Assembly: GCA_002269645.1 (NCBI GenBank)
Contig: NIVC01003908.1
Location: forward strand, 6,187-70,186
From: Macrostomum lignano
Lineage: Eukaryota
Direction: 5' to 3'
DNA length: 64,000 nt
The notes under the pieces were generated by a model. The model had not been told where the DNA came from. It saw only the letters and a program-made list of their open reading frames with translations, and searched no databases. How positions within the stretch are numbered: position 1 is the stretch's first letter; each line of letters begins with the position of its first letter. Shown here in pieces: positions 9,862-61,790 of this stretch. A program made the translations under genes and the position numbers.

Positions 9862-9957
9862 TTCTAGAAACTTCTACCGCGGACTTGTTTACGCATAGTT
9901 CCAGAAGTTTCCTTCCCCGGTCTTTCTAGAACTTTCCTTCCCCGCGTGCATAAATAT
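9862..9957 (+). promoter_or_regulatory. Three perfect heat-shock elements followed by a TATA-like box
   Basis: TTCtaGAAacTTC 9862-9874, TTCcaGAAgtTTC 9899-9911, TTCtaGAActTTC 9924-9936, then CATAAATATA at ~9948. Confidence 0.65.
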
Positions 9958-29750: not shown

Positions 29751-29754
29751 ATTC

Positions 29755-31458: not shown

Positions 31459-31964
31459 TTTCGAGTGAATTTTTTTGTGAGAAGCGCAGCGAAAGCTGAG
31501 TGATTAAAAAAATCTACCCAATATATAAGGCTGCAGAAACATAGCTTCCCCTTTTGAGAACAATAGATATTGTACGGAGGGACGAAATTTGGTGTACAAA
31601 GGGGTGAGGGCAGCCACACAAAGGAATGCAATCCTTTCTGTCAGAATTCTAACTGGCTGTCAAAAATTTGCCGCGTTTCTGAAAATTTCCGTCAGACTGA
31701 CAGATATTTGACGCATTAAAACACTCATCATTTACTATAAGTAGTTTTTTAATCCTTCTCTTCGCTATCAAGAGCTATTATTCTTAAGTAATAATCCTCT
31801 TCCTTCTCTTCAAATTCACTTATTTTTGCAATTTGTAAAATGAGCTCTCAAAATAATTCTCTCTTAAATCATAAATTCCTTTCTGTTTTACTTCCTCAAT
31901 CTGTTTTGATTTTTCTAGAAAACGTCTTTACTAAAAGCCAACTCTGTAGCTGGAGGACAGATGC

Positions 31965-32360
31965 TAGTAGAGAAACCAAATCCAGTGAAAAGAGTTGTAT
32001 TGAGTAATAAGGAGATTCACGAGATTGTGCTACAGTTTGAGACTGAAGATGGGGTGGGTGTTATTTTCAACGGTGAAGAGTTTGTATTGACGTTAATCAT
32101 TGGGAGAATATAAGAAAAAATTACAATTGCCTAATGATTTCTGCAAAGTTATAGTAGCTGTCTTAATCTTTTACGTAGGTTACTCCATACTTGAGAAACC
32201 AGTGTCTTTAGAGAGCTAGAATAATATTAGGGACATTGATATCAACGCCGGGCCAATATTTTCTCATGTATTCGCTGCATTCTAGTTTGCATCAGTACTT
32301 ACTCTTGTAATTAGGCTCGTGCGCTTTGTAATAAGAACCTGTAGAGACGATTGGAAGCAT
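31965..32360. pseudogene. Family A relic: penton 3' end (+) and decayed 79-aa TIR ORF (32121-32360, -)
   Basis: High identity to 8875-9262, with three in-frame stops in the small ORF. Confidence 0.9.
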
Positions 32361-33190
32361 TTTTATTGAGAATTTAATTTTTTTCGGAGGATGAGCACCC
32401 TGGTTTGGGCATTGGCGCTAATTTGATTGTCTTGGCACACTTTTGCAAGGCTGGGAGGCTCCTTAGGAGACTGATATTTTTCATAATAAATGTAGAGAGG
32501 TTAGAGTAAGTTAGAAGAGATTAGAATAATTTTTGGAGAGACCCTTTTCTTCGGGAATAATAAAGTTATTATTGTGGCTCTGATAATTTTTGTCCTAGAA
32601 TACTATACTCACAGAATGCAACTCACAAACTGATCTGGAATAATAAAAAGTAGAGAATTTAGAATATGGAGACATATTTTTGTGAGGGGCAGGTACCCTT
32701 TTTCCTGATCGATTTGGGAAGAATAAAGTTAATCGTTTGTGCATTATGGAGGCTGCGATAATTTTTGTCCTAGATTGCCCCTTTCGCATACTACTGAGAA
32801 GCGAGGAAACAGAAGAGAAGATAGAAGTTTCAAAGGATCACAATTCTTTGTCCTAATAATAATTCTGTAATAGTAATAATAATGATAATCAAAAAAAATA
32901 ATTGATATTACTTGATAATAATAATATAATAATAATTCTTTGTCCTAAGAGGGACATAGGGAGTGTCAGGCAGAAACCAGAGTTTGCCAATACATGTTTT
33001 CCCCAAATCCTAATTTTACACGAATATGTAAACTTCGTGCAGTGTGCAAAATTTGCAAAAACTAGCACAAAAATGCATTTTTAAATTAAAACTTCTATAG
33101 TGCTGCTTCAGTTGTACCAATCTTTTTCAATATGGACGCATTCAATCTTCAACTATTTTAATGCAATTGTTAAAAATTTTGATTTTTAAA

Positions 33191-36998: not shown

Positions 36999-37255
36999 TG
37001 TAACTAAATTGACACGACTCAATTGATTTTCTCTTTAGAGTTTGTTAAGAGAAAGCCAAAAAAGCCCTCTGGTTCGCTGGCTGTTTTGACTTATTTCTTT
37101 AGATAAAGCGAAAAGAAAATGACGCGTGGAGGGTGGGGGCGCCCAGTGTACGAGCGGATGTACATTGCACGACAAGCGGGGTGAAAGGTGAGTCGGCTTT
37201 CTCTTAATGTAAAGAAAACCATTTGGGCTGAATAAATATGAACTTTTCCGCCACA
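36999..37255 (-). repeat. 3' LTR (polypurine tract GGGGGAG at 37256-37262)
   Basis: Homologous to 42534-42767 plus 48635-48660. Confidence 0.9.
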
Positions 37256-37592
37256 CTCCCCCAATGACCTGATCGATTGAGGTCAAGGTCATTTCACAAA
37301 AGGAAAAGTAACACAAGGTAGAAAAAACAAATATTGCCGCCGCTAAAACATTGATCGGACTGCGGAAAAAAAGCAAAAACCAAAAAAGCACGAAAATCAA
37401 CCAACTGTGTATAAACTGCAAAATTACCAGAAAAAACTCAAACCCCGACCATCGAAAAACAACGACTGAGAACCACCAACCAACCGACATCGAACGACCA
37501 CTGACCGAACGCCACCAGCAAAATGACCAAAAGAACACAGGAAAAACGACTAGACGCAGCCAGCAGCCGAGTAAAAAACCACTAACGACACG

Positions 37593-40500
37593 TCAGACTT
37601 CCAGAGGTACCAGCAACTTCACTGGCCGTCGAAGATGCGTAGCAGCTCGACCACTTTGAGAACTGGCCACCCGCAGTAGGCATGAACGGGCGACTCCATC
37701 GTGACCCTGGTGCACAGCTTCGACAACCGCAAGCTTCCACTGAAGTCTTGGCAATCCGGCATCCATCACTAACACTACGTCACCAACTCGTATTTCCCGA
37801 TTCGATGTTCGACCGTCTTTGGATGATTGCTCACGGAGGGCCAGAATGTACTGTGCTTGCCACTCCTTCCAGAACTTGTTCAGCAAATGTCTGGACTTTC
37901 GGAGCCTTTCGGGAAGCGGCAGGACCATTGAAACTTCCTCTTCGTCCTCTGGTTCTTTTTTCAGGCGGCGCAGAACGAGGAAATGACCAGGTGTGATGAC
38001 TTCTGATTGCTCGCCAGAAGACACAAAGCCAAGCGGTCTTGAGTTTACAACCGCTTCCGCCTCACAGACTGCTGTCGACAGCTCCTCGACGGGCAGGAAA
38101 GCCCTTCCGATTGTCTTCTTGAGCACTGATTTCACTACGCCGACCAGTCTCTCGTAGAAGCCTCCCATCCATGGAGCTCGCTCGGGAATGAATGTCCAGG
38201 TGACTCGGCGGCTGCTCAGAAAATCTTGGCCTGCTTGAGTCCGTAATAGAGCTTCTTCTGCATCCAGTAGCCTGGCCGCCGCATGGAAGGTTTTAAAGTT
38301 GTCAGAGATAATCGATGGTACACCTCGGCGGGCACAGAAGCGTCTCAGGCTCAGAAGGAATGACTGCGTTGTCAAGTCAGTGACGAGTTCGAGATGCACT
38401 GCTGGTGTGCTAGTACAGGTCAACGATCGAATGTAGGCTTTATGTTGGCCGTCATCCTCCCCCCTGCGCATTAATCGAGGCCAACATGCTGGAACGCACG
38501 ACACGTCATAAAACGAGATGCCGGCAGCTGTGCTGGTTGTGCAATCCGGTACGGCAATCCTTGCAATCGAATGCATGTGTTGCATGATTTGAGCACAGAT
38601 ATTACCTTCTGCCGCCCTTTCAGTAGCCAGAATCGCTCACGAATTGTACTAACGTCGCGGAGGCTCCCTCATGACCGACTTTGTGGTGCGCATCCGTGAT
38701 AAGCAGTATCTGGAAGCTGGGGTCTAATGGGCAGAGAATCGGGGACTTTTTTCGTCAGAAAGCGGAGTGTCTCCAAGCCTTTCCGCGCTACGAAGAACAC
38801 CTTTCGGGTCCAAGAACAGCGAGAGGTTCTTGTTAACCTGCGTGCGGGCAGTGCTGTCGCGAAGACTGCGAATGTCGGCTTCGAAGTCACGCGACTGCAG
38901 CGATTTAATCCAGAACTCCTCCGTTTTTAACAGCTTTGCCGACGTCAGCTCGACAGTCGTAGCCTGCCGCGTCCGTTTTAAAATGCTGATGAAACGAAGA
39001 ACCCACGCTGAGACCCGCAGCAATCTAGTCAAGGAATTATAGCGCTGCACCTCGATGATGGAGTGGATGCGTGCCGATTGTACCTCTGACGTCGACGTCT
39101 GTGTGACTACGCAGCTGTGTTCATCTTCTCGATGATATGAGCTTTGGTCGCCTATTACAGGTTGTTCCAGCCAGAGCGAGGAATCCAGAGACAGCCACTT
39201 AGGACCCCAAAACTAGGGGGACGATTAATCGAATGCGCCGGGCACGACTGGTCGGGTAGCAATGTCGGCGAGGTTGTCCTTCCCAGGGCAGAACAGTCAC
39301 TTCTCCGGTGCCACAGCTGCTGGAATGTTGGAAACTCTGTTTTGAATGAATGGCTTCTACAATTTGTGTGTCGACTTGAGCCACCACAGAACGTCCATGC
39401 TATCGCTCCAGCAGGTGATGACGCCATGCGGATATTCAGCGCGGACTTTGTCGAGGGCTTGAGCAAGCTCGTTTGCAGCCATCAACTCTAGCCGTGGAAT
39501 AGTCGTCGGAGCTATGGGCGCGACGCGTGTTTTGCCCATCAGTAGCGCAACTTGGACGTCACCCGAATCGAATGTAGACCGTAAATAGACGCACGCTGCG
39601 TAGGCCGATTGAGATGCTTCACAGAACCCATGAATTTCGCATGCGATGGGCGTCTGTCTGAAGACTCTTCGGTCGAGTGGCATCGTCTAACATCGTAACT
39701 CAGCTAAGCATTCAACCCACTGCGAGTTAAGGGGCTCCGGAAGCATAGCGTCCCACGGCACCTTTAGTTTGCAGCTCTGCTGAAAAAGCAGTTTGGCTCG
39801 CGTCAGCAACGGGCAAAGAAGGCCAAGAGGGTCGAACGTCTTGGAGAACGCTGACAAAGTCGAACGCTTGGCCGGTCGAGACGGTCGAGACGTTCGCCGG
39901 ACAAGCCGATTGCCGGATGATCGCGAATCGACAAATTGAATGCGTCGCTATCCGGAATCCATTGCATGCCAAGGACCTTGACTGGTGATTTGGTTGAATG
40001 TGACACGCCACAACCATCTTCAAGAGCAGTGGTGTTCAGAGCTGAGCAGTTAGAGAGTCAGCCGCGTATATTCATCGATGCTTCCAGGAACGCGCTCCGC
40101 GTTATGTGATACAATGCCATAGCTTCCTCTTCGGAGTCTGCGCCAGATACTAGGTTGTCGACATGTGTCCTGAGACAGTTTCAGACGAACGGTCTCGGAA
40201 GCCTTGGTTGTTGTACGGAAAAGGTGAAACAGAACTTCTTGCAGGATTGCTGGACTGGAGATCAGGCCAGACACAAGGCGCACATAGCGAAAGACGTGAA
40301 TACTTGATTTCTTGTCGTTCATGTTCTCCAGCCACAAGAACCGAAGGGCGTCTCTGTCCTCCTCACGAATAGTGATTTGAAGAACAGCCTTCTCGACATC
40401 AGCTATGATGGCTACAGTATGATTTCGAAAGCGAAGTAGCAACGAAGAGACGGAGGGCAGTCGACACGGACCGGCCTCCAGCACGTCATTAAGAGAGTAA

Positions 40501-42210
40501 TCCGTCGCTGTCTTCTCACTTGCATCAAAGACAATGCGAAGTCGAGTCGTCTGACTTTCCTCCCTTATCACAGGAAGGTGTGGGATGTAGTGATTGAGCG
40601 TTTTCGGCTCGTATTGGTGCTGATTCAATGACGCTGTGAGCGAGTTGGTCTTTAAAGATTTCGTGGAAAATTCACGTGGTTGTTGTCTCTGCTGTCTGTC
40701 TGCTGGATCTCGTTGCGCATGGACTCTGCAGCTTGAGAGCGTACCACATCGGCTAGCGACTCACCGACAGTGAAGAGTGCAAGTCGTGATAGGATCATCC
40801 GCTGATGCAGAGACTGTGAGTCTACCACTGACCAGATAGCCGAGCTTGCTTTTCACTGCCACCGGACCTTTACCACTCACTGTGCGAAATACTTCGCCAT
40901 CTACAAGATCGTAGAAGCAGTCAGCACCAACCAATATCGAGATCGGTTCGGATGCATCTCGCGGGTCGAACGGGTCGGTGAGATCGAGGCGTTGTATCTC
41001 TGGATGAGCATCCAGCATGACCGATGCTTGCGGTGAGCAGATCCGTGGAGTTGTGTAACCGCGCAGAGAGAAAAGGCTGGGGGAATTCCATCGGCGAATG
41101 CTGAATTTTACAATTTCTGAATCAAATTCGGTGCTACTGGCACCAAACGTGCCGACTCGGAGGACTTCTGTGCCTTCTGACTCTAATCCAAAATGCTTAC
41201 TGAGAGCTTGCCGAATGTAAGTCTTTTTGCTTGCTGTGTCGAACAGTACGCGTACAGGAAGTTCCATCTGGGCTCATCAGCAAACATTTTTCTGTCGGCA
41301 TGACAACAGCTGGGCTTGAGTGCACTACCAGAGACTGGCTATCGGAGCTTAGATAGCTGTCACGTTGTTGGACTCCGACACTGGCTTCGGCTTTGACTGT
41401 TTCGAAAAACCAGCTTGGTTTCCGGGCCCGTTACTTACAGTGGAATACAGGCTGGGGCAGATGCTCGGATGATGCATTTTGCCACAACATCGGCACGCAG
41501 GCAACAGAAGCAGCGCAGAATATACGAAACCTTGCCTTCGCGGTGGTGTGCACCTTACAAGATTCTGACGAATGGTTGCCTTGGCAAAACGTGCAGGAAA
41601 GCAGAGAACCGTCCTTTTGTTTTCTGAATGCTACTTTCTGCTGATTGGAAGAAAATCTACGCTGAGCTTTAACGATGAGCTTCCTAGAGTACTGCGGCCC
41701 TCCGGACCAGGCTTTTGACCGTCTGGGTGCTTATGGCCGCTTGCCGAGCATCGTTCTCGCAGTTTGATTTCGCTATCCAGAGAGTCTAAGAATAGTTCGA
41801 CAGATTTTCCTCCTCTTTCAACTCGGATAGACCAACTCGCAGCACGTCAGCTCAAATTACAGGCAACTTTGCTTCAAGACTCGGCAGCAGAAACACTTCG
41901 TAATTCGACTGGTAGACACCAAGAGTCTCTAAACCTCGGACACAGGACCGAGTGGTATCAATGAAGGATCTAAGCGATTGGGTAGAGTCGGACGGACACT
42001 TCACGGCTTCGAGCTTCTTCATAAAGTGCTGGACTAAATTTTCTTTTAAGCCGTACCGATCTACGAGTAACTCCCAGGCAGTATGATTGTCTTGTCCTGT
42101 CAGCTGAAGGTTGTCGACGCAACGCCGAGCTTAACCACGCAAGCAACTCAAGAGGTAACTGAACTTCTCGACATCAAACAGCGTTATTTTCAAACAGTGA
42201 AATCGAAAAA
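37593..42210 (-). pseudogene. Bel/Pao gag-pol (gag, Zn knuckles, PR, RT, RNase H, IN), frameshifted
   Basis: VLFDTAS (PR); YIPHLPVIREESQTTRLRIVFDAS (RT); EIHGFCEASQSAYAA (RH); SDNFKTF and PWMGGFYERLV (IN). Confidence 0.95.
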
Positions 42211-42244
42211 AGTTTTCAGTCCAAAAATTCTGAACTCAACTAGC

Positions 42245-42420
42245 CGATGACACACGACGACAGACCAGCCGGCGAGGCACGACCACACAAAGACCAGCCG
42301 GCGACACGACGACACGAAGACCAGCCGGCGACACACGACGACACGAAGACCAGCCGGCGACACACGACGACACGAAGAACAGCCGGCGACACGACGACAC
42401 GAAGATTAGCCGGCGATGAA
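42245..42420. repeat. Short tandem repeats (GACACGACGAC / GACCAGCCGGC) in the retroelement 5' UTR
   Basis: About 6 imperfect ~30-bp units. Confidence 0.8.
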
Positions 42421-42515
42421 CGAAAGCACGAGTACTACACACATGCAGACACAATGGGCCAGCGCACGTCACGCTGTGCAAAATCAATTGATATTTCGCT
42501 TGTAGTTAGATAAAG

Positions 42516-42533
42516 CTCACTGTTCGGGTGCCA
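42516..42533 (-). other. Primer-binding site, tRNA-Lys(UUU)-like
   Basis: TGGCACCCGAACAG directly follows the LTR end; one mismatch to the Lys3 PBS TGGCGCCCGAACAG. Confidence 0.75.
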
Positions 42534-43249
42534 TGTAATTGACACGACTCAATTGATTTTCTCAAGCAAACACAGTACCACAGAAAGCGAAAAAAAGCCA
42601 TCTGGGTCGCTGGCTGGTTTGACTTATTTATTTAGATAAAGCGAAAAGACAATGACGCGTGGGGGTGGGGGCGCCCAGTGTACGAGCGGATGTACATTGA
42701 ACGACAGGGCGGAGCGGGGTAAAAGGTAAGTCGGCTTTCTTTTAATGTAAATAAAACCATTTGGCCTAGTAGAAGGCATGAGGGGGCTTTTGGGACAAAA
42801 TTTTTCATATCCTCCATAATCCCATTAAATCCATCCATATTATCCCCGACAGAATCAGAAAAAAGGGGGGTCGCACTCGCTCACAAAACGTCCTCCATAA
42901 TCCCATTAAATCCATTCATATTATCCCTGACAGAATCATGAAAAAGGGGAGGGGCCGCACTTGCTCCGAAAACTTCGAACATAATCCCATTAAATCCATC
43001 CATATTATCCCTGACAGAATCAGAGCAGGTGTCAACTGATACCTGTTATGCTCACTGTGGACACCTGTTATGCTCACTGACACTGACATCATCCACCGAC
43101 ATCCACCCATAACATTTCTAAAACAATCAGAAAATAATCTGCATTCTTCTCCCCACATTTGATTCGCAACGTGCGACCAGATCCCTAAAACTTTAAATTC
43201 CCTAACCCAGGGTCCTCACCCTTTAAAAAAAATTAAATTCTCAATAAAA

Positions 43250-43489
43250 ATGTTTCCAGTTGTCTCTCCAGGTTCTTATTACAAAACGCACGAGCCTAAT
43301 TACAAGAGTAAGTACCGATACAAACTTGAATGCAGCGAATACATGAGAAAATATTGGCCCAACGTTGATATCAATGTCCCTAATATTAATCTAGCTCTCC
43401 AAAGACATTGGTTTCATAAGTATGGAGTAACCTATGTAAAAGATTATGACAGCTACTATAACTTTGCAGAAATCATTAGGCAATTGTGA
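43250..43489 (+). CDS. 79-aa TIR-encoded protein (left TIR copy)
   Basis: Two substitutions relative to 9023-9262. Confidence 0.6.
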   Translation: MFPVVSPGSYYKTHEPNYKSKYRYKLECSEYMRKYWPNVDINVPNINLALQRHWFHKYGVTYVKDYDSYYNFAEIIRQL

Positions 43490-43493
43490 TTTC

Positions 43494-43772
43494 TTACATT
43501 CTCTCAATGATTAACGTCAATACAAACCCTTCACCGTTAAAATCAACGCCCATGCTTCAGTCTCAAACTGTAGCACAATCTCGTGAATCTCCTTATTACT
43601 CAATACAACTCTTTTCACTGGATTTGGTTTCTCTACCACCATCTGTCCTCCAGCTACAGAGTTGGAGATGTTGTACAAAATATTCGTTCGCTTTCCCTTA
43701 AATACCCAATCAAGACTGAGATTAGTTCTGATTAGAATATTCAAACCCTTTACAATGTCTGCTATATTGGGT
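43494..43772 (-). pseudogene. Penton 3' fragment
   Basis: PNIADIVKGLNILIR...LQFETE matches 8155-9018. Confidence 0.9.
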
Positions 43773-44087
43773 CTTCGTCTTGAGTGGGCGAGCTTCCTTA
43801 TAACTGGAAGCAATGTCTATTACTGTGAGAGCATACTTGTAGCCCGAGTCATTGGGGAGAAACAGAAGATCTGCTTGGTGTGCCTCATTAGGTTTATAAA
43901 TACTGAAATGGGGCCTTTCAAATTTTACTGGTGGGAAATAGACTTAAAAGACAGTCTGCTTAGAGAGCCATTTTTCTACTGTAGCTTTTGGTTCCTTACT
44001 CAGCTCCATGAGTTTACTAACGGCATTTTTGCCTACAAAGAATCCTTTGTCGCTGTAGTAGAGTTTTTTAAGTTTCTGATCTGTCAT
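43773..44087 (-). pseudogene. Polinton rve integrase, N-terminal ~105 codons with one stop
   Basis: Manual translation MTDQKLKKLYYSDKG...KWLSKQ..*VYFP...RPHF...PNEAHQADLLFLPNDSGYKYALTVIDIAS.YKEARPLKTK. Confidence 0.9.
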
Positions 44088-44117
44088 TTATTTATAAAGA
44101 AAATTTTAAATAAAATA

Positions 44118-44600
44118 ATGCAGCGCTCTGGTGGTAAAATAGATTCACATGGACTGATAGAAAAGCTTCCTCATCCAAACAAAGGCTGGACACTTCCCGG
44201 CTATAAATATTGCGGGCCTTTGAATAATCCACTTGAAATTCAGTTAGATACAAACGATAATCCAAATCCTGGGCATGAGCCTGTGAACGAGCTAGACTCT
44301 GTCTGCATGTGGCACGATGTCAAATATAGAGATTTTCCTGAGGAGAAGAATCGTTGGGACAAAGAAATGCTTAAGAGACTAGACAATATAGAGGCTTCAA
44401 GCGGATTTCGTGAGTCGATCGCTCGGAAGCTAGTTAAAGCTGTTATTTTTAGTAAGGCAAAGTTGGGATTAGGAATGGGCGCTGAGGGTGGGTGCACGGG
44501 GAGAGAGGGCGGACGCACGGGAGCAGGGTTTATTTTGTGTTCTCCAAACAATGAATTGGGAAGACTGTTGAAAGAGCTGGGGGTTGAGAGAGGCGCTTGA
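44118..44600 (+). CDS. Parvovirus-type phospholipase A2 (adintovirus PLA2X-like)
   Basis: Ca-binding loop LPGYKYCGP, catalytic NELD..C..HD..Y, D..ML..LD, and terminal KLGLG. Confidence 0.9.
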   Translation: MQRSGGKIDSHGLIEKLPHPNKGWTLPGYKYCGPLNNPLEIQLDTNDNPNPGHEPVNELDSVCMWHDVKYRDFPEEKNRWDKEMLKRLDNIEASSGFRESIARKLVKAVIFSKAKLGLGMGAEGGCTGREGGRTGAGFILCSPNNELGRLLKELGVERGA

Positions 44601-44926
44601 GTCGGGAAAGATTATTCGCAGCCAAGCGCAACAGCTGCATTTCGAAAAGGGGTGGGGTAACTGCTATTTGCTGAGGGAGCGCAGCTTTTGCGAATGTACA
44701 ACTTCCACGCGTGCTTTCCTTTCCTTTCCTTTCTTTCCTTTGTATTGCGCACGCCAAATAACGAATTAGAAAGACTGCTGAACAGTTTACATTGATAAAC
44801 AACTGAAAGACTGAAGCGACATATTATAGTCGCTATATAGTTTATTAGTTTATTATAGTTTTTCATGTGGTAAGCAACGTGGCAACAACAGAGCATGCAG
44901 CAGAAGACAGAATGCCTATCTTAGGT

Positions 44927-45234
44927 AAATAATAATAATAATTGATTACACCTGCCCAATGGGCAGATGTGCAACCGACAGCTCAGCCGCAGCTATTGCG
45001 CGGCGCATCTGAAGGCTGCGTGCGGCTGTTCAGTCCAAGGACTGGGGGTCGCCACACACACCCTCAATTACTCCAGCTAATGCTGGCACCCATTTTACAG
45101 CTGGGTGAACTGAAGCAATGCGGAGTAAAGTGCCTTGCTCAAAGACACAGATTGTTGCAGGGGGATCGGGAATCGAACCCCCAACCTTCATTCAAGTCGT
45201 GAGTCTGACGCCCTAACCACTAGGCTACAACCCC
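44927..45234 (-). mobile_element. tRNA-derived CORE-type SINE
   Basis: A box TAGCCTAGTGG, B box GGTTCGATTCC, MIR-CORE-like segment (CCCATTTTACAG...AAGTGCCTTGCTCAAAGACAC on +), and an (ATT)n tail. Confidence 0.85.
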
Positions 45235-45376
45235 GTATGTGCAGGGTCTAAACTATGCAACAATATAAAGGTTTCTGGGTGAGCGCCTGCTTTTTCTTCC
45301 CAGTCCCACCACACTGAACACCCCGCCCAGTTCTGCCTGTCTCTTTTTTTTCTAGCCTCCGCAACTAGTCAAACAG

Positions 45377-46711
45377 CCACCTCAGAAAATGAAACCGCTG
45401 GTTTCAAATTTTGAGGTGGGTGATCCTTTAAAGACGCTTGTGTCTTTCTTTTTCTAGCCTCCCAACCCCCAGAGAGGGCCGGGGGGTCTGGGTAGACCAA
45501 CTCTCAGGCCAGCCCTTCTCTCACCCGTCTTGCCCCACCGCCTCTCATTCCAAGCATGTCCTCTGGGTGCCTCTCTTCGCAACTAGCTCTCTCTAAGCTC
45601 TCCTAGTCAAACAGCCACCTCAGAAAATGAAACCGCTGGTTTCAAATTTTGAGGTGGGTGATCTGAGTTCTGCACTGCTTCTCTAGCCTCCGCAACTAGC
45701 TCTACGCTCTCCCGAGCTCATTCTATTTTTAGTCAAACATAACACTAGCGATCTCGCGCTGGGGGTAGAGGGGCGCCTGGGAATTTTGAGTCTCCCGTTG
45801 TACTGAAATCTCCTTCCCCTTGAGCTCCTCTCCCTTTCCCTTCCCCAACAGTCCGGGCCAGAGCACTGGGCTCTCTTTGCACAGGGGCGCCGCGCCACCT
45901 CAGAAAATGAAACCACTGGTTTCAAATTTTGAGGTGGGTGATCTGAGTTCTGCACTGCTTCTCTAGTCTTCGCAACTAGCTCTACGCTCTCCCGAGCTTA
46001 GTCAAACAGCCACCTCAGAAAATGAAACCGCTGGTTTCAAATTTTGAGGTGGGTCTACACTGCTGCGCTATTCAGTTCTCACCCGCCCTGCCACTCACTG
46101 CATGCAGTCCGCGCATTCCGCCACAAGTCCCCCCCTTCTCTCTCCACCCACCCTCCCTCTGCAATTCACTTCTGTGCAGTGCAGCGCCAAAGCCAAAAAA
46201 GAGAATTGCAGAGGGTTGAGGGTTGATCCGGGCGGGAGGGGGTCTTTCTTTTTCTAGCCTCCACAACTAGCCGCTCCGTTTTCTTCTACGCTCTCCCGAG
46301 CTTAGTCAAACAGCCACCTCAGAAAATGAAACCACTGGTTTCAAATTTTGAGGTGGGTGATCTCTTCTACGCTCTCCCAAGGGTTTTATTTTTAAAACTT
46401 ACGTCTACACTCTACAAAGTACAACCTTCTGGGTGATCCCTCCGTTTTCTTCTACGCTCTCCTAGTCAAACAACCACCTCAGAAAATGAAACCGTTGGTT
46501 TCAAATTTTGAGGTGGGTGGTCTGAGTTCTGCACTGCTTCCAGCAGAAACATTTGTCTACACTGTCTCAAGCAAATTTGCTATTTTAATCAAACACCCAC
46601 CTCAGAAAATGAAACCAGTGGTTTCAAAATTTGAGGTGGGCAATCAAAATGGCATACTTGTTAAAAAACCACCCCAGAAAATGAAACCATTGGTTTCAAA
46701 ATTTGAGGTTG
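45377..46711. repeat. Eight dispersed 43-bp imperfect palindromes
   Basis: CCACCTCAGAAAATGAAACC-nnn-GGTTTCAAATTTTGAGGTGG at 45377, 45615, 45895, 46010, 46314, 46474, 46597 and 46669. Confidence 0.95.
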
Positions 46712-46800
46712 GTGTCAACATTAGTAACTATCCAAGGATAACTTGCTATTATTATAGCTTCATGAGTTGCTAAATAAACAATACATTGCTAATTTAAAAG

Positions 46801-47424
46801 TCAAAACAACAAGCCTTCGTCCACTTCCTGTTGCAGCATCGCAAGGGCCTCTGGCAAGTATGCAATCATCGACTTCAGCTTGTGCAGGGACATTGCAGAT
46901 CTTTGTAGCACCGGATATTTCTCAGCTTGGTCAGCCAATTTCATCAGGAAGTTGGTCCACTGGCTGGTGAACGGTGCACGTCTTTTCAGCTCGTTGAACT
47001 GTTCCTTACTGAGAACCCGCTCCATTCTCAGAAAGATCCTGCCGAGCTGTAGGCCGTTTGCAAAGCCATGCTTACCATGCCGTTCAACTAGCTTATGAAG
47101 GTTGGCAATCTGTACAAGCACTGCGTCGGTCGTAAATGTTCCCTGCATAAATTCTTCTAGAGAATGCACTGGCACAGGCTCACTGTTGGTTTTGTAGGCC
47201 GTGCGCAACTCGTCCAGAGCCTTGCCGATTTGTAATTGCTTGTCGGTAGTTTTCGCTAGCCGTCCATTGATAGTTGGCTTCACGATTGGTGACCGAGCAA
47301 TTGCATTGTATTTATCGGCCCAAACATTCCAGTTGTCGAGATCTTTACTAGAAAATACAGCCTTTATGAAGTTCTCCAGATTTTGGATGTAAACGTCGTT
47401 GCCTGCTTGCATTTCTTCATCCAT
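46801..47424 (-). CDS. 207-aa helical protein (DUF3102/HTH-like), intact
   Basis: Clear homologue of 54097-54708. Segment G.QLGRIF.....LS...F......FT..W..FLMKLA. Confidence 0.7.
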   Translation of the reverse strand: MDEEMQAGNDVYIQNLENFIKAVFSSKDLDNWNVWADKYNAIARSPIVKPTINGRLAKTTDKQLQIGKALDELRTAYKTNSEPVPVHSLEEFMQGTFTTDAVLVQIANLHKLVERHGKHGFANGLQLGRIFLRMERVLSKEQFNELKRRAPFTSQWTNFLMKLADQAEKYPVLQRSAMSLHKLKSMIAYLPEALAMLQQEVDEGLLF

Positions 47425-47541
47425 GGCAAGATCCAGAGATTAAGCTAGTCAAAAATAAGAAGTTGCTGGCTCAGCGAGTTGAGGCGGGGCGAGGCGAGGC
47501 GGAGCAGGCAGGGTGAAGCGAGGGGCGGTGTGAATCGGCTG

Positions 47542-47621
47542 TATATATACCATTGGTGTGGGCTCGGGAATCCACGGATTCTCTTTTTGTTCTAGAATTT
47601 TCTAGAATTCGAATTCTAGAA
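47542..47621 (-). promoter_or_regulatory. TATA + CCAAT + 4-unit heat-shock element promoter
   Basis: TATATATA 47542-49, CCAAT (-) 47552-56, TTCtaGAAttTTCtaGAA 47590-47607, plus TTCtaGAA 47614-21. Confidence 0.7.
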
Positions 47622-47973
47622 GGGAAACCCGCAGATTTTCTACTTATAGCCAGTATTTTCTATTAATGGTTGATTGGGGTTGCCTGGGAAAGATCTAGGA
47701 AGACTGCTGAAAGAGCTGGGGGTTGAAAAGGCTGGGGTTTAAACAAGGAACTAAATGGGCGTTTCTGAAGCTAGGCAAGGGATCTTCTGAGCTAGTTAAG
47801 GCTTGAGCTGGGCAAAAGCTTTTTTCTCTATGCTGCACACGCCGCTCGCGCTATGACAAGAAACAGCTGCCATACCCATTCCGCTATCACCCACCCGCCA
47901 CACAGCAAAATACCATGCGTAAAAATATCTATTAATGCAGTCTTAAAGTCTTAAAGCGTATCGTAACGACATT

Positions 47974-48213
47974 CTACAATTGCTTAATGATTTCTGCAAA
48001 GTTATAGTAGCTGTCATAATCTTTCACATAGGTTACTCCATACTTATGAAACCAATGTCTTTGGAGAGCTAGATTAATATTAGGGACATTGATATCAACG
48101 TTGGGCCAATATTTTCTCATGTATTCGCTGCATTCAAGTTTGTATCGGTACTTACTCTTGTAATTAGGCTCGTGCGTTTTGTAATAAGAACCTGGAGAGA
48201 CAACTGGAAACAT
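47974..48213 (-). CDS. 79-aa TIR-encoded protein (right TIR copy)
   Basis: One substitution relative to 9023-9262. Confidence 0.6.
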   Translation of the reverse strand: MFPVVSPGSYYKTHEPNYKSKYRYKLECSEYMRKYWPNVDINVPNINLALQRHWFHKYGVTYVKDYDSYYNFAEIIKQL

Positions 48214-48969
48214 TTTTATTGAGAATTTAATTTTTTTAAAGGGTGAGGACCCTGGGTTAGGGGATTTAAAGTTTTAGGGATCTGGTCGCACGTTGCGAAT
48301 CAAATGTGGGGAGAAGAATGCAGATTATTTTCTGATTGTTTTAGAAATGTTATGGGTGGATGTCGGTGGATGATGTCAGTGTCAGTGAGCATAACAGGTG
48401 TCCACAGTGAGCATAACAGGTATCAGTTGACACCTGCTCTGATTCTGTCAGGGATAATATGGATGGATTTAATGGGATTATGTTCGAAGTTTTCGGAGCA
48501 AGTGCGGCCCCTCCCCTTTTTCATGATTCTGTCGGGGATAATATGGATGGATTTAATGGGATTATGGAGGATGTGAAAAATTTTGTCCCAAAAGCCCCCT
48601 CATGCCTCATGCCTGCCCTCATGCCCTCATGCCTGAATAAATATGAACTTTTCCGCCACATGCCTCTTCCTGCTAATAAATATTTAACTCAAAGCTCAAT
48701 TTCCCCGCTACCGCGCCATTTACTTCCCCCAGTACATGTAGAATAATTGAGGCATAACTCCACACATTTTAATAAAGAATACGGCTAAGCCAATGTACTG
48801 TATTTTATTACGTAGAGATAGCAACAATAATAGCGCGGAAGCAAGTTTACAGTGGATGGTAACATGCAAAAGTAGACGGCATAAGAAGGCAAAACAACAA
48901 GTAACCTAGTCAATGTAGTCAACAAGTACTCGTAACTCACGATGCGAATAGTGAATAAAATTTACCGTA

Positions 48970-49002
48970 AGTAGAATGCATGAGGGGGCTTCTGGGACAA
49001 AA
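48970..49002 (+). repeat. 33-bp family A terminus stub
   Basis: AGTAGAATGCATGAGGGGGCTTCTGGGACAAAA. Confidence 0.9.
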
Positions 49003-49188
49003 GTTGCCTCGAGTTGCCTCGCGGGGGGCGGTCGGGGGTGTTTCTAGTGACTTTATTACGTGTTTGATTTCTATTTGTGCTTATTCGTTATGATGCATTT
49101 TATTATAGTATGAATGCTATTTGCGTTTGCTTACTCGTTGTTTTGCCATCTTTTCATTCACCCTCTACATGTTAACACATACTACGGT

Positions 49189-49821
49189 AGTAGAATGCAT
49201 GAGGGGGCTTCTGGGACAAAATTTTTCACGTCCTCCATAATCCCATTAAATCCATCCATAACAAACCGCTTATACTTTCCCGGGCCATTCTAACGGCCCC
49301 TGACGCTTGTGTAGCGGCCCGCGCCGCGGATTCTGCCTTATAAACTTTCTTCTCGAATCCCAATTCCCTATACCAAGTGTCATCTTTAAACTCAACCTCC
49401 GCATCTTTGTGAACTTGCATGACCACTCTCATTACAGTGAGATCATAGGCTAGTTTGACAGAGAACATTTTTTATCTGGCTTACTCGCATCAGGTGTCTC
49501 AGAATGGCCTCTTTTAGTAAAGACGTTTTCTAGAAAGTAATTGTAGGTATCCACACTTTGCGTGCTCACAGGGAATACCACAGGTTCTGCTGCTGCACCT
49601 TTCCATTTGTAATAAAACTTATTATTTGCTGCCGTCACATTGGGAACGTTTGACCAACCAGTGAAGTCGTTAAGATAGACATGGTAATTAGCACCTGGAT
49701 CCAGGCTAATCGCCTGCTCTAATTTTTGAATAAATATTCCGTTTGAGTCATTAATTCGCCCAGTTATTGTAATAGGAATGCTCTCCTTGGAGTGAGAAAC
49801 AATATTGTTTAGTCTTTTGGA
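49189..49821 (-). pseudogene. Family A terminus (~72 bp) fused to the N-terminal two thirds of the penton gene
   Basis: AGTAG start at 49189; ORFs 49226-49468 and 49450-49824 match 8155-9018. Confidence 0.9.
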
Positions 49822-50272
49822 CACGCGTGGTACCTCGCGGTTAGGGCTACTGGTTTTCTATTGCTAAGGATTTTACTAGTGGATTTACTGGTTTTAGATT
49901 TTGGTAGATTTGCTGCCACCAGGCTTCCTGCTTCCCTATTTCTATTAATTTAGTGATAAGGAGTGACACAGGAAAACCGAAATATTTAACAAAACTTTAT
50001 TACTTCAAAAAAAGAAAAGGAAATCAGCATGCAATGGTTATTGTTACTTTACTTGTGCGAAAAATAGGCATTGACTACCTTGTAGTGCACTGTTGTTGGC
50101 ATCGACTACCTCCAACAGTTTTACGTATTTCCCAATATTTTCCCTGCCTCTTACCTTTCCTAATTTGAGACTTCGTAAGTCCGCGAACGATCGAACGAAT
50201 TGCTTTCCCAAGCCCCAAACTGCTCTATACTTCTAGAGAATCCCGAAAACTGGCGATTTTCCCCCGCTCTAA

Positions 50273-53345: not shown

Positions 53346-54096
53346 TTTTCAGCTTGATCACATAAAAACACAACTGAAGCTTGGGCAATATAAAATACAC
53401 TATTTACACTATGATGTATTATCATTGGTTGCCAAAACCAAAACTTTTTTGGCAGAAATTTTGGTCGCAAGATTTGGCAGAAATTTTGGCAGAAATTTTG
53501 GCAGCCAATGAGAAAGCGACAATGGGTGAAAAGAATGCAACTTGCAGGCTCATGCCAGATGCAGAAAAAAGTCTACCCACATGAGTCAGAATTGTAGTTA
53601 CTTGAGAAGCTCGGCATCGCACTGCACATGCACACTGAAAGAAACTATGTTCCTTTTTTCTTTAAAGCAGAATGACTCAACATTCTTTCTAGCTTTTCGC
53701 ATCAAGAATGAAGCAAAGCAACTAACCTAACCCTAACAGTTTAGCAGTTGAGTCAATAAGAATTTATTGTTCCTTTATCAATAGGTTTTGAATATCAGCA
53801 TGCTGCAGCAGGAATTGAGCACCTCTTAAACCCCAACTCTAAAGCACGGCCATGGCAGTTTTTTCTCTATTTTCATGACTCAGTGCGCATGTAAGAAGTC
53901 GCTTAGGTGGCTTGATAAAAACCCGCTTTAGTTTTGGAAGCAATACAACACACGTTTATCAGACAGACTAAAGCAAACAGAGCGAACATATAAATCACAC
54001 AACTCAGCAACAACGAAAAGGTAAGAAATAAGAGTTTTGTTCTTGTGTTGATTTTGATACTAAATAGTTATAATGCCCTACATTTTAGAATCCCGT

Positions 54097-54708
54097 ATGG
54101 AGGCAGCAATGGCATCATTCGAATCCGACCTCGATAGTCTTATCAAGAAGATTTTTTGTAGTGGGGATTTAAAGCATTGTAAGAAATGGATAGGAGAATA
54201 CAACAAGGTTGCTAGAAAATTTAATAGGAAGAAGTTTGCTATTCCAACTTTTCGAGGTAGATTGGAGAGAGTGGACAAGACAAAGGAACGAATAGCAGAA
54301 GCTGCTAAAATACTGCGGGATTCGATGGAGCATCAAGAGCCGGGAGAGATTAATGAATTTATGGACGGAGAGTATCAATTTCAGGATGCAATTACAGAAC
54401 TTAATTCCATTGATAAAATGATAAACGAGCTACAGTGCCGGGGCTTGCAGTATGGAATTAAGTCTGGTCAGATATTAATAAGAATGAAGCTTTCATTGAG
54501 TGACGAGGAGTATAAAGTATTTTTGTCTAGACTACGCTTTAAGTCGGCGTGGGGGAACTATTTAGTCCGAGTGGCTCGTCTAAGCACAGCACATCCAATT
54601 CTGTGGCGTTGTGGCATCTCACTGTTTCGCCTACGTTCTATAATCAAGTACGCTGAGAAAGCCCTGGAGATGCTGGAGGAAGAGGAGGAAGATGCACTTC
54701 TGATCTGA
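54097..54708 (+). CDS. ~203-aa helical protein (DUF3102/HTH-like), intact
   Basis: Homologous to 46801-47424. TATAAAT at 53989; likely start MEAAMA (54097). Confidence 0.7.
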   Translation: MEAAMASFESDLDSLIKKIFCSGDLKHCKKWIGEYNKVARKFNRKKFAIPTFRGRLERVDKTKERIAEAAKILRDSMEHQEPGEINEFMDGEYQFQDAITELNSIDKMINELQCRGLQYGIKSGQILIRMKLSLSDEEYKVFLSRLRFKSAWGNYLVRVARLSTAHPILWRCGISLFRLRSIIKYAEKALEMLEEEEEDALLI

Positions 54709-54767
54709 CGAAAATCTTATTGCGCGCGTTGTGAATCATAACATCTGACTCTCATTATGCTGACTAT

Positions 54768-55182
54768 TCTTTTTCACATCGAATACTGCAGTATCTGGAT
54801 CTTTTTTGCTCGTTGCTTTTTCACATCGAATACTGCAGTATCTGGTTCTTTTTTGCTCGTTGCTTTTTCACATCGAATACTGCAGTATCTGGTTCTTTTT
54901 TGCTCGTTGCTTTTTCACATCGAATACTGCAGTATCTGGTTCTTTTTTGCTCGTTGCTTTTTCACATCGAATACTGCAGTATCTGGTTCTTTTTTGCTCG
55001 TTGCTTTTTCACATCGAATACTGCAGTATCTGGATCTTTTTTGTTCGTTGCTTTTTCACATCGAATACTGCAGTATCTGGTTCTTTTTTGCTCGTTGCTT
55101 TTCACATCGAATACTGCAGTATCTGGTTCTTTTTTGCTCGCTGCTTTTTCACATCGAATACTGCAGTATCTGGTTCTTTTTC
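54768..55182. repeat. 9 x 47-bp tandem array with a 12-bp perfect palindrome ATACTGCAGTAT in each unit
   Basis: CACATCGAATACTGCAG at 54775, 54822, 54869, 54916, 54963, 55010, 55057, 55103 and 55150. Confidence 0.97.
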
Positions 55183-55291
55183 TGCCTATTGTAATATCGC
55201 TTATACATTTCTAATTGCTTAATCGTGTGGATGCCACAATAAATTTATAACGTCATTACATAATTTTCCTGCTAAATTTATTTTATAAAAA

Positions 55292-58200
55292 ATGGAACAA
55301 CTCAGAAAGATGAGTGATGAAGAATTTGAACAATACATTCAAGCTGAGCGGTTTCGGCGTCAGCAGCAAAAGCACACAGATAATGAGCCTATAGCGGAGT
55401 CCAAAGAAGATGAAGTGGCAGCTCCGCAGATTGGTGATGAAATAATACTACATAAATCCTTTAGAGAGAAGTATAATAAGAAGTCAGAAATTTCAGAGTA
55501 CGTCATTAGGAATGTTAATGAAGGTTATATAACAAAGGTTTTTATTCAGTATGAAGATGCAATTAAAGCAGTGTTGGAGAAAGTTAGAGATGGTGGACGG
55601 AGTAAGTTCAACTTGCATTTTGAACTAGAATTCAAAAAGAATTTTAACGAAGACATTCCTCCATTCACAGTCTATGACAATGAAAGTGGATTCTACAATA
55701 TTCAGTCAGATTCACAGTATGACGCTGCCCTTACCGAAAGACAGAAGATATTGGAAAAGTTCATTGATGAGTTCTGTGAGAAGGGATCAGATAATGTCTT
55801 TGTGCAGATAAAATCTATCTACATCAGAGTTGCCAAGGTTTCTAGCATTCAGGGAGGATCCTTCTTTACTAACAATGAAGTTAAAAAATGTCTATCAATT
55901 CTTAACATTCAGAATGATGATGAGAAATGCTTCCTCTGGTGTGTATTAGCTGTTAAACATCCACAAAATAAAGATGGTTATCGAGTGTCAAAATATAAAC
56001 CATATGAAAAAGAACTTAATCTCACCGATATCCAATTCCCCATGAGAATAAAAGATATAAAAAAGTTTGAAAGACTAAATGAAGAGTTTGCTGTTAATGT
56101 GCTGTATTATGAAGGTAAATTCCCAGATACACTACAACATCTCTATGTCTCACCTCATAATCAACGAACTTATGTAGTAGATTTACTATACTTGGAGGAA
56201 GATGGTAAGACTCATTATTGTCTGATAAAAAATCTTACAACATTAGTTTCAAAACAAACTGGAAAGCGTGTAAATCACAAGTCATTTTTATGCAGAACAT
56301 GCATGACTGTTTACACAAGTGAAACCGTGTTGGCCGAGCACTCAAGGTTGTGCGGTAAAAATGCACCTGGTCATTATAAATTACCTAAGGAAGAATCGAA
56401 GCTGAAATTTAAAAATCATATATTCAAACTAAAGCTACCCATCGCTATCTATGCTGACTTTGAAGCAACAACTGAACCCATTGAAGCACAAAGTAAAAGC
56501 TTCACTAAGATTTTAGACAAAGAGTCATATACTCTAAAAGTAGCAAATCAGAACGCAATAGCTTACGGTTTTTATATCCATTCTGAGTTACCCGAGGTAA
56601 TTAATGTTGAAGTTTTTTCAACAGCTTTTTCAACAGCTATTTGCTCCTGTGTATCTATGGTTGTTAGTTCATATCGGTACGATACTGTATTGAATATTTA
56701 TTGAACTTTCTAGAAAGGGATACGCACAGCTATTTGCATTAACAATATTAATCAATATTATGTATCTGACAATTACTATATAAAGTACTAAAAGTACGAG
56801 CTATAAACTATAAACAACAATTAAATCGAAGTATGAAGGATATTGTGGCACAGATGCCAAGGAAAAATATGTTGATAGAATGGTTGAAATTCATCAACAA
56901 ATTAAGAATGGTCTGAAGGAGCCTAAGCATATTAATCATAATTTGACAGCGCAAGAGGAGGCTTCTTACTGTAAGGCTAAACAATGCTACATATGCGAGA
57001 AGGAGTTTGATATGGTTCCAGATATGAAGGTGCATGTGAAGGAAATTGACAGTAAAGTTACTATAGAATCTTGGTGCAAAAATGTCTGAACAAGAGCAAT
57101 AATATAAGTAAATATAAGATCACAAAGCAACAATGGAAAGAGTTTTACAGGGCTGAAAAATGTGCGAATTGTAAAAATGACTTCACACTTAAGCTAGGTA
57201 AGGTAAGAGAACATTGTCACTATAGTGGCAAATATAGAGGGGCTGCCTGTAAATCCTGCAATGCTCTCGAAAGTAAGAAGCGAGTAATCCCAATCTACTT
57301 CCAGAATGGATCCCACTATGACTTTCACTTCTTAGTGACACACTTAAAGAGCAAAGAGATCATGGAGGATAAATTATTTCCTCCACTATCTAAAACTTCT
57401 GAAGAGTACATTTCTCTCGAGTTTGGATGTAACAAAGTAGTACTGAGGTTCCTAGATTCATACAGGTTCTTGGCTTCCTCGCTGGATATCTGCGCAAAGT
57501 CCCTGAAGGATGAAGACTTCATCATAACAAAGAAATACTTTAAAAACGACAGCGATTTTCAATATGTTAAGCGCAAGGGTGTATTCCCATATGAGTATAT
57601 CAGAAGCTTTGGAAGATTAGCAGAAACTGAGTTACCACCATTGAAAGAGTTTTACTCGAGGTTGAAAGGTGAAGACATTTCTTCAGATGAATATGATTTT
57701 GCAAAACAAATGTGGAAAACTTTTAATTGTAAGAATTTGGAGGATTATATGATGCTGTATCTTAAGGTTGACGTTCTATTATTAGCAGATGTATTCGAAC
57801 GCTATAGAACATTCTTCCTGAAACACTTTGAGATTGATCCAGCCAGATGCTTCTCAGCACCAGGATTGAGTTGGAATGCTGGGTTGAAGAAAAGTAAAGT
57901 TGAGTTAGACTTGCTGGCGATATCGATATGATTCATATGATTGATAGTGGAATAAGAGGTGGATTTAGCGGAGTTCTAGGGTCACGATATGTAAAGGCAA
58001 ATAATCCTTATCTTCCAGGCTATGATTTAGAAAAACCAACTTCCTACTTACTTTACGTTGATTGTACAAATCTCTATGGTTATAGTATGTTGGAACCCCT
58101 TCCTTTTTCTGACTAAATGGGAAGCTGATTCCAACTATTATAAAAATCCTCCTGAAGGACGGGGCTGTCTTGTTGAATGTGATCTTGAATATACAAAAGA

Positions 58201-59335
58201 ATCAAAAAAGAAAACGTATGCCTTCCCATTAGCACCTGAAAGTACAACTGTGTCAGAAAGTGAATTGAGTGAATATCAGAAAGGATGTCTAGAAGTCGAA
58301 ATGAAAAAGATTGGAAAAGTTCCTAAATTGATCCTTAATTTAAAAAATAAAACAAAATATATCGTACATCATAAGCTATTGCGATTCTATGAAGAGATGG
58401 GCTTGAAAGTGACAAAAGTACATAGGACGATTTCATTCAATGAAAAGCCATGGTTAAAGGAGTATATCGAGTTTAATACGATAGAAAGAAAGAAGGCAAA
58501 AGAAGCAAAAATTGAGTTCGAAGACAATCAGTTCAAAATGCTTAATGTAAGCATCTTTGGCAAGACAATGGAGGATGTTAAAAAGAGAAAGCGATTTGAG
58601 TTGCTGACAAGTGAGGATGAGATATCTAAGATAATATCCAAGCCAGATTTCATAGACTTCAAAATCTTCAATGAAAATCTAATTTGCATTCACCAGCGAC
58701 CTAAGAATATCCCTCTTGGAACAAAGCCAACATACGCTGGACAAGCAATTCTGGATCTCTCGAAATTGCATATGTATGAAACATTTTACAAAGTTTTCAA
58801 GTCCAAATGGGGGGATAATGTTGAGATTGTTACCTCTGACACCGACTCATTCATTCTTCATATAAAGACAGAAAATATTTATAAAGACATTGCTCAGATG
58901 AAGGAGCATTTCGATTTGTCGCTGTATACAAAAAATCTTCCGATTGATTTACATGATATGACTAATTGTGGAAAGCTGGGAACATTCAAGGATGAATTGG
59001 CAAAATATGATTGCATAATGACAGAAGTAACCGCTCTAAGATCGAAAGCATATTCATTTAAAACAGTTTATGTCAGCACTCAAAAGGAAGGGAAGGAAGA
59101 GAAAAAATTAAAGGGAATCTCAAAGTCAACAGTGAAGCATCATGTACAATATGATGACTATAGAAATATACTACTTGATTATAACGAACCAGTCTATAGG
59201 AAAGTGTATAGCCTTAGATCAGACAAGCATAACATGACTTTAATAGAACAAAATAAGAAGGCTATTAGTCCTTTCGATGACAAAAGATACATTGAATCCA
59301 ATGGAATTATAACACATCCTCATGGATTCAAATAA
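55292..59335 (+). pseudogene. polB: Full-length protein-primed PolB, disrupted by a solo LTR and three frameshifts
   Basis: IQND.EKCF.W, IYADFE, VREHCHYSGKYRGAAC..CN, RFLDSYRF, KGVFPYEY, YVDCTNLYG, N.SIFGK, TSDTDS and FDDKRY. Confidence 0.97.
56605..56819. mobile_element. 215-bp solo LTR inserted in pPolB
   Basis: TGTTG...CAACA with 5-bp TSD ATTAA (56600-04 and 56820-24). Removal restores the frame EVIKSKYEGYCG. Confidence 0.9.
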
Positions 59336-60410: not shown

Positions 60411-61790
60411 TTATGTGGCAATTATGTCTAAAATCGGATAAAGTTGAAAGCCTGAAACTATAAGAACAGTTGATCCTTCAGTGGCCGAATTAATATGCAC
60501 TCTATAAACGGAGAATTTTTCGGTGGAAGCTACTTCGAAATACTTCATCACTCCAGGAACTAAACCAGCGTTTTCGGTAGAAAAAATATTCTTAAAGTCT
60601 CTCTTGTTATTGCTACCTTTTAGAATAAAACTTTTTGGTTGATTTTTTATAATTTCACTACCTACTGCTTTGGTTCCTTTCAATCCGAATTTCCAAATTT
60701 GAATAGACTCGGGAAGTTGTACTTCAATGTAAGAATTGGGTTCATTCCTCGATGCCCATTCTGAATTAGATACTACATAACCCCAATTATCTGACGTTTC
60801 AAATGCTCCTGATGACGCTACATTGAAACCCCTTTCTCTATAGTTTTGACGTGTTGCTAGTGAGGGAATATATCCTGTATAAGATTTGAAACCTAGTCCC
60901 CGCCTTAGTCGCAGCTCCACTGATTCAAGTGCATTGTCTACGTATAGCTTTGGTACAGCTTGAAATCTATCTATAGGCCACACTAAATCATTAACCACTG
61001 TTTGTCTCTCAAGTAATTCAACTTTTGTAAGCTTTACGGAACCAGAAAAATTAAGAGAATAATGGAAATAATATGAGGGATTGGGTATTTTTTTCCTAAG
61101 ATGTGCATTGCCCCTTCGTAGTTCAATGGGTGCACTTTGTTCAACAGGTGTCCAGTTTGTTCCATTTAGGCTCACACTAACAGACCAACCAGGCCACACC
61201 TCTCCTTCCAACTTTATCTCTACAACTTTCCTAGCTCTTTTCAAAAATTGAAATCGTATCCACTTGTCTGAGTCATCTACACTGCTCCATTCTGAAGCTG
61301 GGTTTGAATCTGCAACATGATATGCTGCTGAAGAGTTATGAGAAGCGGTCACTTTCATGTCAGGATGGGAAGCGTTTGAAGTCAGTAATGAAAGAATATT
61401 GACTAATTTCGAACTCTTTGTACCCCCCACAGTACCTTGCCTTTCTGCTAACAAAGTGTCAATCTCAGTTTTAGAATACATCTTAGTGTCAATCTCAGTT
61501 TTAGAATACATCTTAGTGTCAGTTTCGGTTTTTGTGTAGACATTGTTTACGCGCCCATGAGCATCGTCAATTAATTGTAGCATGGTGATATTCATTGCGT
61601 CACTATCTTCCTTTGAATAAGAGTCTGAAACATTTCTCTTTGCTAACAATAAATTATCTATTTCCTCTCTCTTATATCCTTCATTTTCATTGATGTATCG
61701 ATCATCAGCTAACACTATTGTTATTCCAGGTGCTATATCATTTGAATTTGACGAGTAACCAAATTGATTGGCAGTATTCTTGTAACTCAT
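60411..61790 (-). CDS. Putative fibre/receptor-binding protein with two discoidin (F5/8-C)-like domains
   Basis: DDRYINENE; repeats YTKTETD/YSKTEID; VTAS....AYHVAD....EWSS....WIRFQF; W......SYIEVQLP...I.KFGL...PKSFILKGSNN. Confidence 0.7.
   Translation of the reverse strand: MSYKNTANQFGYSSNSNDIAPGITIVLADDRYINENEGYKREEIDNLLLAKRNVSDSYSKEDSDAMNITMLQLIDDAHGRVNNVYTKTETDTKMYSKTEIDTKMYSKTEIDTLLAERQGTVGGTKSSKLVNILSLLTSNASHPDMKVTASHNSSAAYHVADSNPASEWSSVDDSDKWIRFQFLKRARKVVEIKLEGEVWPGWSVSVSLNGTNWTPVEQSAPIELRRGNAHLRKKIPNPSYYFHYSLNFSGSVKLTKVELLERQTVVNDLVWPIDRFQAVPKLYVDNALESVELRLRRGLGFKSYTGYIPSLATRQNYRERGFNVASSGAFETSDNWGYVVSNSEWASRNEPNSYIEVQLPESIQIWKFGLKGTKAVGSEIIKNQPKSFILKGSNNKRDFKNIFSTENAGLVPGVMKYFEVASTEKFSVYRVHINSATEGSTVLIVSGFQLYPILDIIAT

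Follow-up and report, generated by a model that had tools for sequence, protein, structure and literature searches.

A probable heat-shock promoter in a non-autonomous Polinton derivative of Macrostomum lignano

What switches animal Polintons on is, to our knowledge, an open question, and one locus of Macrostomum lignano raises it in a concrete form. In a 64-kb stretch of contig NIVC01003908.1 (hereinafter, the window), a first-pass annotation had singled out a perfect four-unit heat shock element (HSE) in front of a minus-strand ORF and read it as the heat-shock promoter of a Polinton gene, whose HTH-like product would be an immediate-early switch for Polinton reactivation. Is this a heat shock promoter, what kind of element carries it, and what might it control?

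A motif scan bears out the described arrangement, namely a four-unit HSE upstream of a CCAAT word and a TATA box and facing the ORF. The array consists of four perfect nTTCn/nGAAn units in alternation (plus-strand letters) at 47589-47608, 39 bp from the TATA box, and is accompanied by a second HSE of two units at 47613-47622 that is 4 bp out of phase with it and whose far end is 73 bp from the TATA box. On the minus strand, the CCAAT word (47556-47552) is followed by the TATA box TATATATA (47549-47542) and then by the start of a 207-aa ORF (46801-47424), with the ATG at 47424 in a CCATGG context, 118 bp past the TATA box. As in canonical HSE promoters, at least three contiguous alternating nGAAn units are combined with a TATA box and a gene start close downstream. 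Both the HSE and TATATATA are symmetric, so the direction of the promoter is read from this geometry. With just 2 bp between it and the TATA box, the CCAAT word is too close for the usual NF-Y site and is unlikely to function as one. By eye, the 3' context of the TATA box resembles those of the heat-induced LTRs id115, id55 and id36 of the same host. These features make a heat-inducible, HSF-driven promoter in front of the ORF the probable interpretation.

Chance alone rarely yields such an array locally: when 47425-47975 is shuffled 20,000 times with its dinucleotides preserved, at least four units arise in 7 cases and at least three units in 156. On the scale of the window, arrays of at least four units appear in 3/100, 1/100 and 2/100 Markov-simulated 64-kb sequences of orders 1, 2 and 3, respectively, and the window itself contains two perfect arrays of at least four units and five of three units, with about 1.2 expected; three of these arrays are those of a solo LTR (see below). 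Because the site was chosen post hoc from a very large scan, rarity alone proves little; the HSE gains weight from preceding a TATA box and an intact ORF. As a background, 11.5% of sampled positions have a TATA-like word at a distance of 15-80 bp on the strand that fits.

The immediate surroundings of the array suggest how it could have arisen without any function. The promoter HSE region contains three identical 8-mers and a perfect 22-bp palindrome (47600-47621) that overlaps both HSE sites, and about 50 bp upstream of the HSE lies a remnant of the C-terminal coding end of a PLA2X gene (47674-47742, plus strand), which probably marks a recombination junction. Given this proximity and the overlapping palindrome, the array could be a neutral by-product of a local duplication plus inversion of a TTCTAGAA block next to the junction, in silenced transposon DNA, in which case the gene would not be heat-induced; the few comparable arrays in simulated windows and an HSE-less paralog of the gene (see below) are in line with this explanation. 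Nevertheless, we consider it unlikely: it leaves unaccounted for the position of the array 39 bp from a TATA box that faces an intact ORF, the paucity of matching local shuffles and the strong precedent of HSE-driven elements in the same host. Alternatively, the 22-bp palindrome, which is a perfect dyad and lies in the promoter of a gene for a putative HTH protein, might be an operator for autoregulation by the HTH protein of the element, with a merely coincidental fit to the HSE. The dyad, however, does not resemble the eight palindromes located downstream of the ORF, and the in-phase four-unit array reaches beyond it, so that an operator appears very improbable.

The precedent comes from a study of heat-inducible LTR elements in M. 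lignano. According to the accessible part of PMC12801592, HSEs are present in 6 of 137 LTR families; four of the six are strongly induced at 37 °C (log2FC 6.3-9.1), the other two, with one HSE each, are not, and the induction of id115 is lost when its HSEs are mutated. One such element is found in the window, which provides a control: a 248-bp solo LTR (9810-10057, plus strand) with three HSEs and a 5-bp target duplication differs from the published Mlig-id115|Mag LTR at 3 positions (counted by eye). Thus, the HSE plus TATA logic of this host is already known from a neighbor in the same window. The promoter in front of the 207-aa ORF does not appear to have been captured from any of the sources compared. 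Derivation from the id115 LTR is rejected as the alignment score of 26 was reached in 103 of 300 shuffles; the scores with DNA upstream of the paralog and upstream of a gene at 31.4 kb were equalled in 277 and 112 of 300 shuffles, respectively; and for a site at 24 kb, only 2 of 300 shuffles scored as high, yet the alignment is a gappy chance one. A comparison by eye with the other five HSE-bearing LTRs reveals no likeness either. The 24-kb site combines a three-unit with a perfect five-unit HSE (23953-24011), which are followed by an AT-rich tract resembling a TATA box (near 24023) and by a possible splice donor (near 24180); the owner of the site was not found in the accessible supplements of PMC12801592.

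The element that carries the promoter is a 5.9-kb unit (42768-48634) with inverted repeats at both ends. The left terminal inverted repeat (TIR; 42768-43487, plus strand) and the right one (47976-48634, minus strand) are identical in 630 of 637 aligned bases, and both recur, at about 90%, at the right end (8736-9727) of another element in the window, Polinton A; at the outer end of the right TIR, short reiterated units replace the terminal bases. Between the TIRs are a 3' remnant (43490-43772, minus strand) of the final Polinton A gene (8155-9018; its position, rather than any family match, suggests a minor capsid protein), a PLA2X-type gene (44118-44600, plus strand; Phospholip_A2_4, PF08398, E = 7.8e-14) of the class named for alpha-class adintoviruses (PMC8502044, in the part available), eight imperfect 43-bp palindromes that are scattered past the end of the ORF (45377-46711) and are candidate protein-binding sites (one unit folds at z = -6.5), and the ORF itself with its promoter. 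Genes for pPolB, integrase, ATPase, protease and capsid proteins are absent from 42768-48634, where only the PLA2X gene, the 207-aa ORF and remnants are found. Lacking polymerase, integrase and capsid genes, the unit is a non-autonomous derivative rather than a self-reactivating provirus. The proposed heat-shock promoter of a Polinton gene holds up as a probable HSF promoter, by the host precedent (PMC12801592, as accessible), but its carrier turns out to be a non-autonomous 5.9-kb derivative.

The unit interrupts one LTR of a BEL/Pao element (nested insertion, 37007-48660), the other LTR of which represents the empty site. This pair of an interrupted and an uninterrupted LTR indicates that the unit moved as a whole, and recently. 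The interrupted LTR resumes at 48635, and the right end of the unit is damaged where a 6-bp target-site duplication would be read. Several other features of family A sequences in the window can be mentioned. Within the element, the minus strand of about 44950-45230 looks like a SINE of tRNA origin. Further rearranged family A fragments are located at 29750-32800 and 48960-49830, and the PLA2X C-terminal motif is repeated at 30313, 44526, 44745 and 47689, which is likely a recombination hot spot.

The locus is present in multiple copies. The stretch is found in 20 of 24 public sequencing runs (8 studies, one organism; none of the 20 is labelled as RNA in its record), and the contigs of four of the 24 runs (X3, X12, X17 and X20) that were aligned form two classes, one near-identical and one roughly 90% identical. 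Among the differences listed (40 of 118 single-letter ones and 12 of 26 indels), the 18 core bases of the HSE are untouched, and the closest one to the core is at 47589, a flanking position; near-identical copies are, however, uninformative with respect to selection. The HSE is spanned without a gap by X17 record 12 (4 differences) and X20 record 23 (3 differences), and X12 record 7 covers it with 9 differences in 113, at positions that are not listed. In X3 and X12, a joint between 47468 and 47974 deletes the entire promoter. The joint lacks the GT-AG borders of an intron and is present in a run guessed to be DNA. X20 record 22 retains the TATA core, which is followed by unlike upstream sequence; the X20 contigs leave 47672-47839 and 47896-48231 uncovered. 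The contigs of the three runs guessed to be RNA cover the ORF but also the promoter, plus the TIR in X3 and X17, and are not taken as evidence on expression. No relatives of the ORF locus were found in the viral and metagenome contigs searched. Thus, conservation of the HSE among copies, which the first-pass annotation had made a check of its proposal, extends to the near-identical contigs; the HSE is absent from the deletion variant and from the paralog, the left ends of full-length elements being outside the view. In X12, the summed contig depth at the TIR (47976-48370) is about 100 times that of the ORF, and the inner flanks are of several unlike kinds, which suggests that many TIR-bearing derivatives exist, although contig depth is not a copy number.

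The 207-aa ORF encodes a protein for which a confident, all-helical structure is predicted (pLDDT 87.5 for the whole protein and 93.8 for residues 95-207). No Pfam family could be assigned to it, PHROGs and PDB sequence searches return noise with no relevant match, and among the 215 candidates from a word-based protein search, none is a close homolog. The same search with an alignment (A3) retrieves P0003 alone (1 of 3366), and a two-sequence profile retrieves 18 representatives at E-values up to 0.001; the sole named relative is a M. lignano protein, which, like the id115 solo LTR, points to M. lignano or a very close species as the host. Fold searches with the model of the whole protein produce no clear match. 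The C-terminal domain, in contrast, aligns with Spo0J (Z = 6.8, 97 of 113 residues, rmsd 5.0), KorB (Z = 5.7, 95/113, rmsd 4.3) and ParB (Z = 5.7, 95/113, rmsd 5.0), but also with Raf1 (Z = 6.3) and USP8 (Z = 6.0); partial matches to unrelated helices score equally, and all these Z scores are below 8 and tied with those of unrelated helical proteins. The best viral fold match of this domain is a DUF3102 protein (Foldseek probability 0.90, E = 0.25), and DUF3102 recurs among the Atlas feature-search matches, whereas the PF11300 and ParB models match none of the 15 family members at an E-value of 1. The HTH-like label can accordingly be retained as a fair but unproven description of a possible ParB/KorB-type domain, in view of the weak structural leads to Spo0J, KorB, ParB and DUF3102, but it receives no backing from Pfam or PDB sequence matches. 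Among the differences listed in the ORF, 4 of 11 are synonymous, compared with an expected share of 0.22 (p = 0.20). A candidate splice acceptor located some 20 nt ahead of the ATG was rejected because a difference at 47446 destroys it in many contigs. Past the end of the ORF, the minus strand has the words ATTAAA at 46589 and AATAAA at 46390.

A paralog of the ORF (54073-54708, plus strand; 28.5% identity, E = 1e-26) is encoded in a second element of the window, Polinton B. Both genes directly precede repeat arrays, namely the eight palindromes at 45377-46711 and an array of 47-bp tandem repeats with a short dyad in each unit at 54722-55242. The repeated pairing suggests a protein with its cognate sites. 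The paralog lies upstream of pPolB, and the 207-aa gene is the first gene inside the TIR. The 600 bp upstream of the paralog contain a TATA-like word but no HSE, even of three units with two mismatches. Polinton A, which encodes matches to protease, A32 ATPase and double-jelly-roll proteins, shows no three-unit HSE array in the 9.7 kb in view, its left end lying beyond the window. The polymerase genes of both Polintons (1-2059 and 55292-59335) are broken across several frames; that of Polinton B carries an endonuclease VII domain, and a three-unit HSE (56702-56790), followed after 60 bp by a TATA-like word, is located at a break in its frame. The Polinton B ORF at 60411-61790 contains an F5/8 type C (discoidin) domain (E = 4e-10) and might encode a receptor-binding fibre.

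The gene order lends some credence to the immediate-early switch, in which the HTH product would start the replication of family A Polintons and the expression of their structural genes in trans, in a prophage-like manner: counted inward from a TIR, the gene comes first, and its paralog precedes pPolB. A further point in favor comes from the accessible 2-h heat table of PMC12801592, in which one transcript encoding pPolB and endonuclease VII, i.e. with the architecture of Polinton B, is elevated (log2FC 2.8, padj 0.010, baseMean 4.4). Against this, another pPolB row in the table goes down (log2FC -1.6), there are no rows for PF08398, PF04665 and PF00770 (PLA2, A32 and adenoviral protease), and no concerted Polinton signal emerges; the table gives no sequences, its rows are not assignable to family A, and the ORF is not traceable there, as it lacks a Pfam label. 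Furthermore, the carrier has no polymerase, integrase or capsid genes, the HSE is missing from both the paralog and the visible part of Polinton A, and the promoter is gone or replaced upstream of the TATA core in some copies. KorB-like proteins, moreover, often are repressors, which also counts against a switch. Taken together, the defective carrier with its damaged right end, the HSE-less paralog, the promoter-less copies and the heat table speak against the switch proposed by the first-pass annotation, which we regard as quite unlikely. The same low expectation applies to the longer chain by which, in family A Polintons or their satellite-like derivatives, the HSF promoter would induce a ParB-like regulator that acts on the palindrome array and thereby promotes Polinton replication or transposition in trans.

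The reading that best accommodates all these observations, to which we assign a probability of about 0.65, is narrower. A core promoter that responds to host HSF, with its 4+2 HSE units and the TATA box 39 bp downstream, would drive the 207-aa gene: upon heat shock, host HSF trimers would occupy the HSE and the gene would be transcribed. Its product, most likely an HTH DNA-binding protein of the ParB/KorB type, would then act on the element's own repeats, be it the palindrome array or the ends. Under this scenario, the HSE would have been gained at the subfamily level, paralleling the four LTR families that are induced by heat, and would not be a conserved Polinton switch.

The HSE promoter is a concrete candidate cis-element, and published heat-shock RNA-seq and reporter transgenesis exist for this host. 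If the gene is induced by heat, the locus would represent a further independent acquisition of HSEs within one genome. Giant viruses are, in the literature as accessible, a known trigger of algal Polinton-like viruses; should the switch interpretation prove true after all, a defined host-stress trigger would be at hand for an animal Polinton/adintovirus. In addition, the 207-aa ORF family is an unnamed family of Polinton proteins, probably ParB-like, that is paired with repeat arrays.

Among known systems, alpha-class adintoviruses or Polintons with PLA2X (PMC8502044, in the part available) share the PLA2X gene with the carrier, and the TIRs of the latter are common to Polinton A, but the carrier differs in being internally deleted and non-autonomous; the words 'heat' and 'promoter' do not occur in the available part of that article. 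With ParB, Spo0J, KorB and DUF3102 proteins, the ORF product appears to share a long helix, the helix-turn-helix spacing and trailing helices, which align over 95-97 of 113 residues, as well as the presence of palindromes nearby; by contrast, Z scores for Spo0J, KorB and ParB are only 5.7-6.8 at 6-12% identity, and the N-terminal CTPase domain of ParB is not recognised in the ORF product. In gamma-herpesviruses, HSF2 acts at the ORF50/BZLF1 promoters (PMC12047821, as far as accessible), which is similar in that a host heat-shock factor is found at a viral switch gene; the role of these genes as lytic switches, however, is proven and belongs to intact viruses, whereas the present promoter is known from the sequence of a defective element.

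The closest parallel is provided by the HSE-bearing LTRs of M. lignano (Mlig-id115, id36, id55 and id38; PMC12801592, in its accessible part), in which, in the same host, canonical HSEs closely precede a TATA box. Unlike these, the present promoter, as compared with the id115 LTR by alignment and with the other five by eye, is not LTR-derived but is internal to the TIR of a Polinton-type DNA element, and whereas the LTRs drive gag-pol, it faces a putative regulator, the induction of which is predicted. ONSEN, a Ty1/Copia element of Arabidopsis (as described in the accessible part of PMC12801592), is likewise a mobile element with host HSF sites, in another class and host. The HSEs of Caenorhabditis Helitrons (PMC6927752, in the part available) are mobile HSF sites as well, but they rewire neighbouring host genes, whereas here the array faces a gene of the element. 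Polinton and maverick are not mentioned in the accessible passages and supplements of PMC12801592, and a literature search that covered titles and abstract openings, mostly outside subscription journals, found no description of an HSE in a Polinton. HSE hijacking is thus already known from ONSEN, Caenorhabditis Helitrons and M. lignano LTR elements in the literature as accessible, and the Polinton case appears to be new; if heat induction holds, Polintons would join LTR elements and Helitrons as hijackers of HSF.
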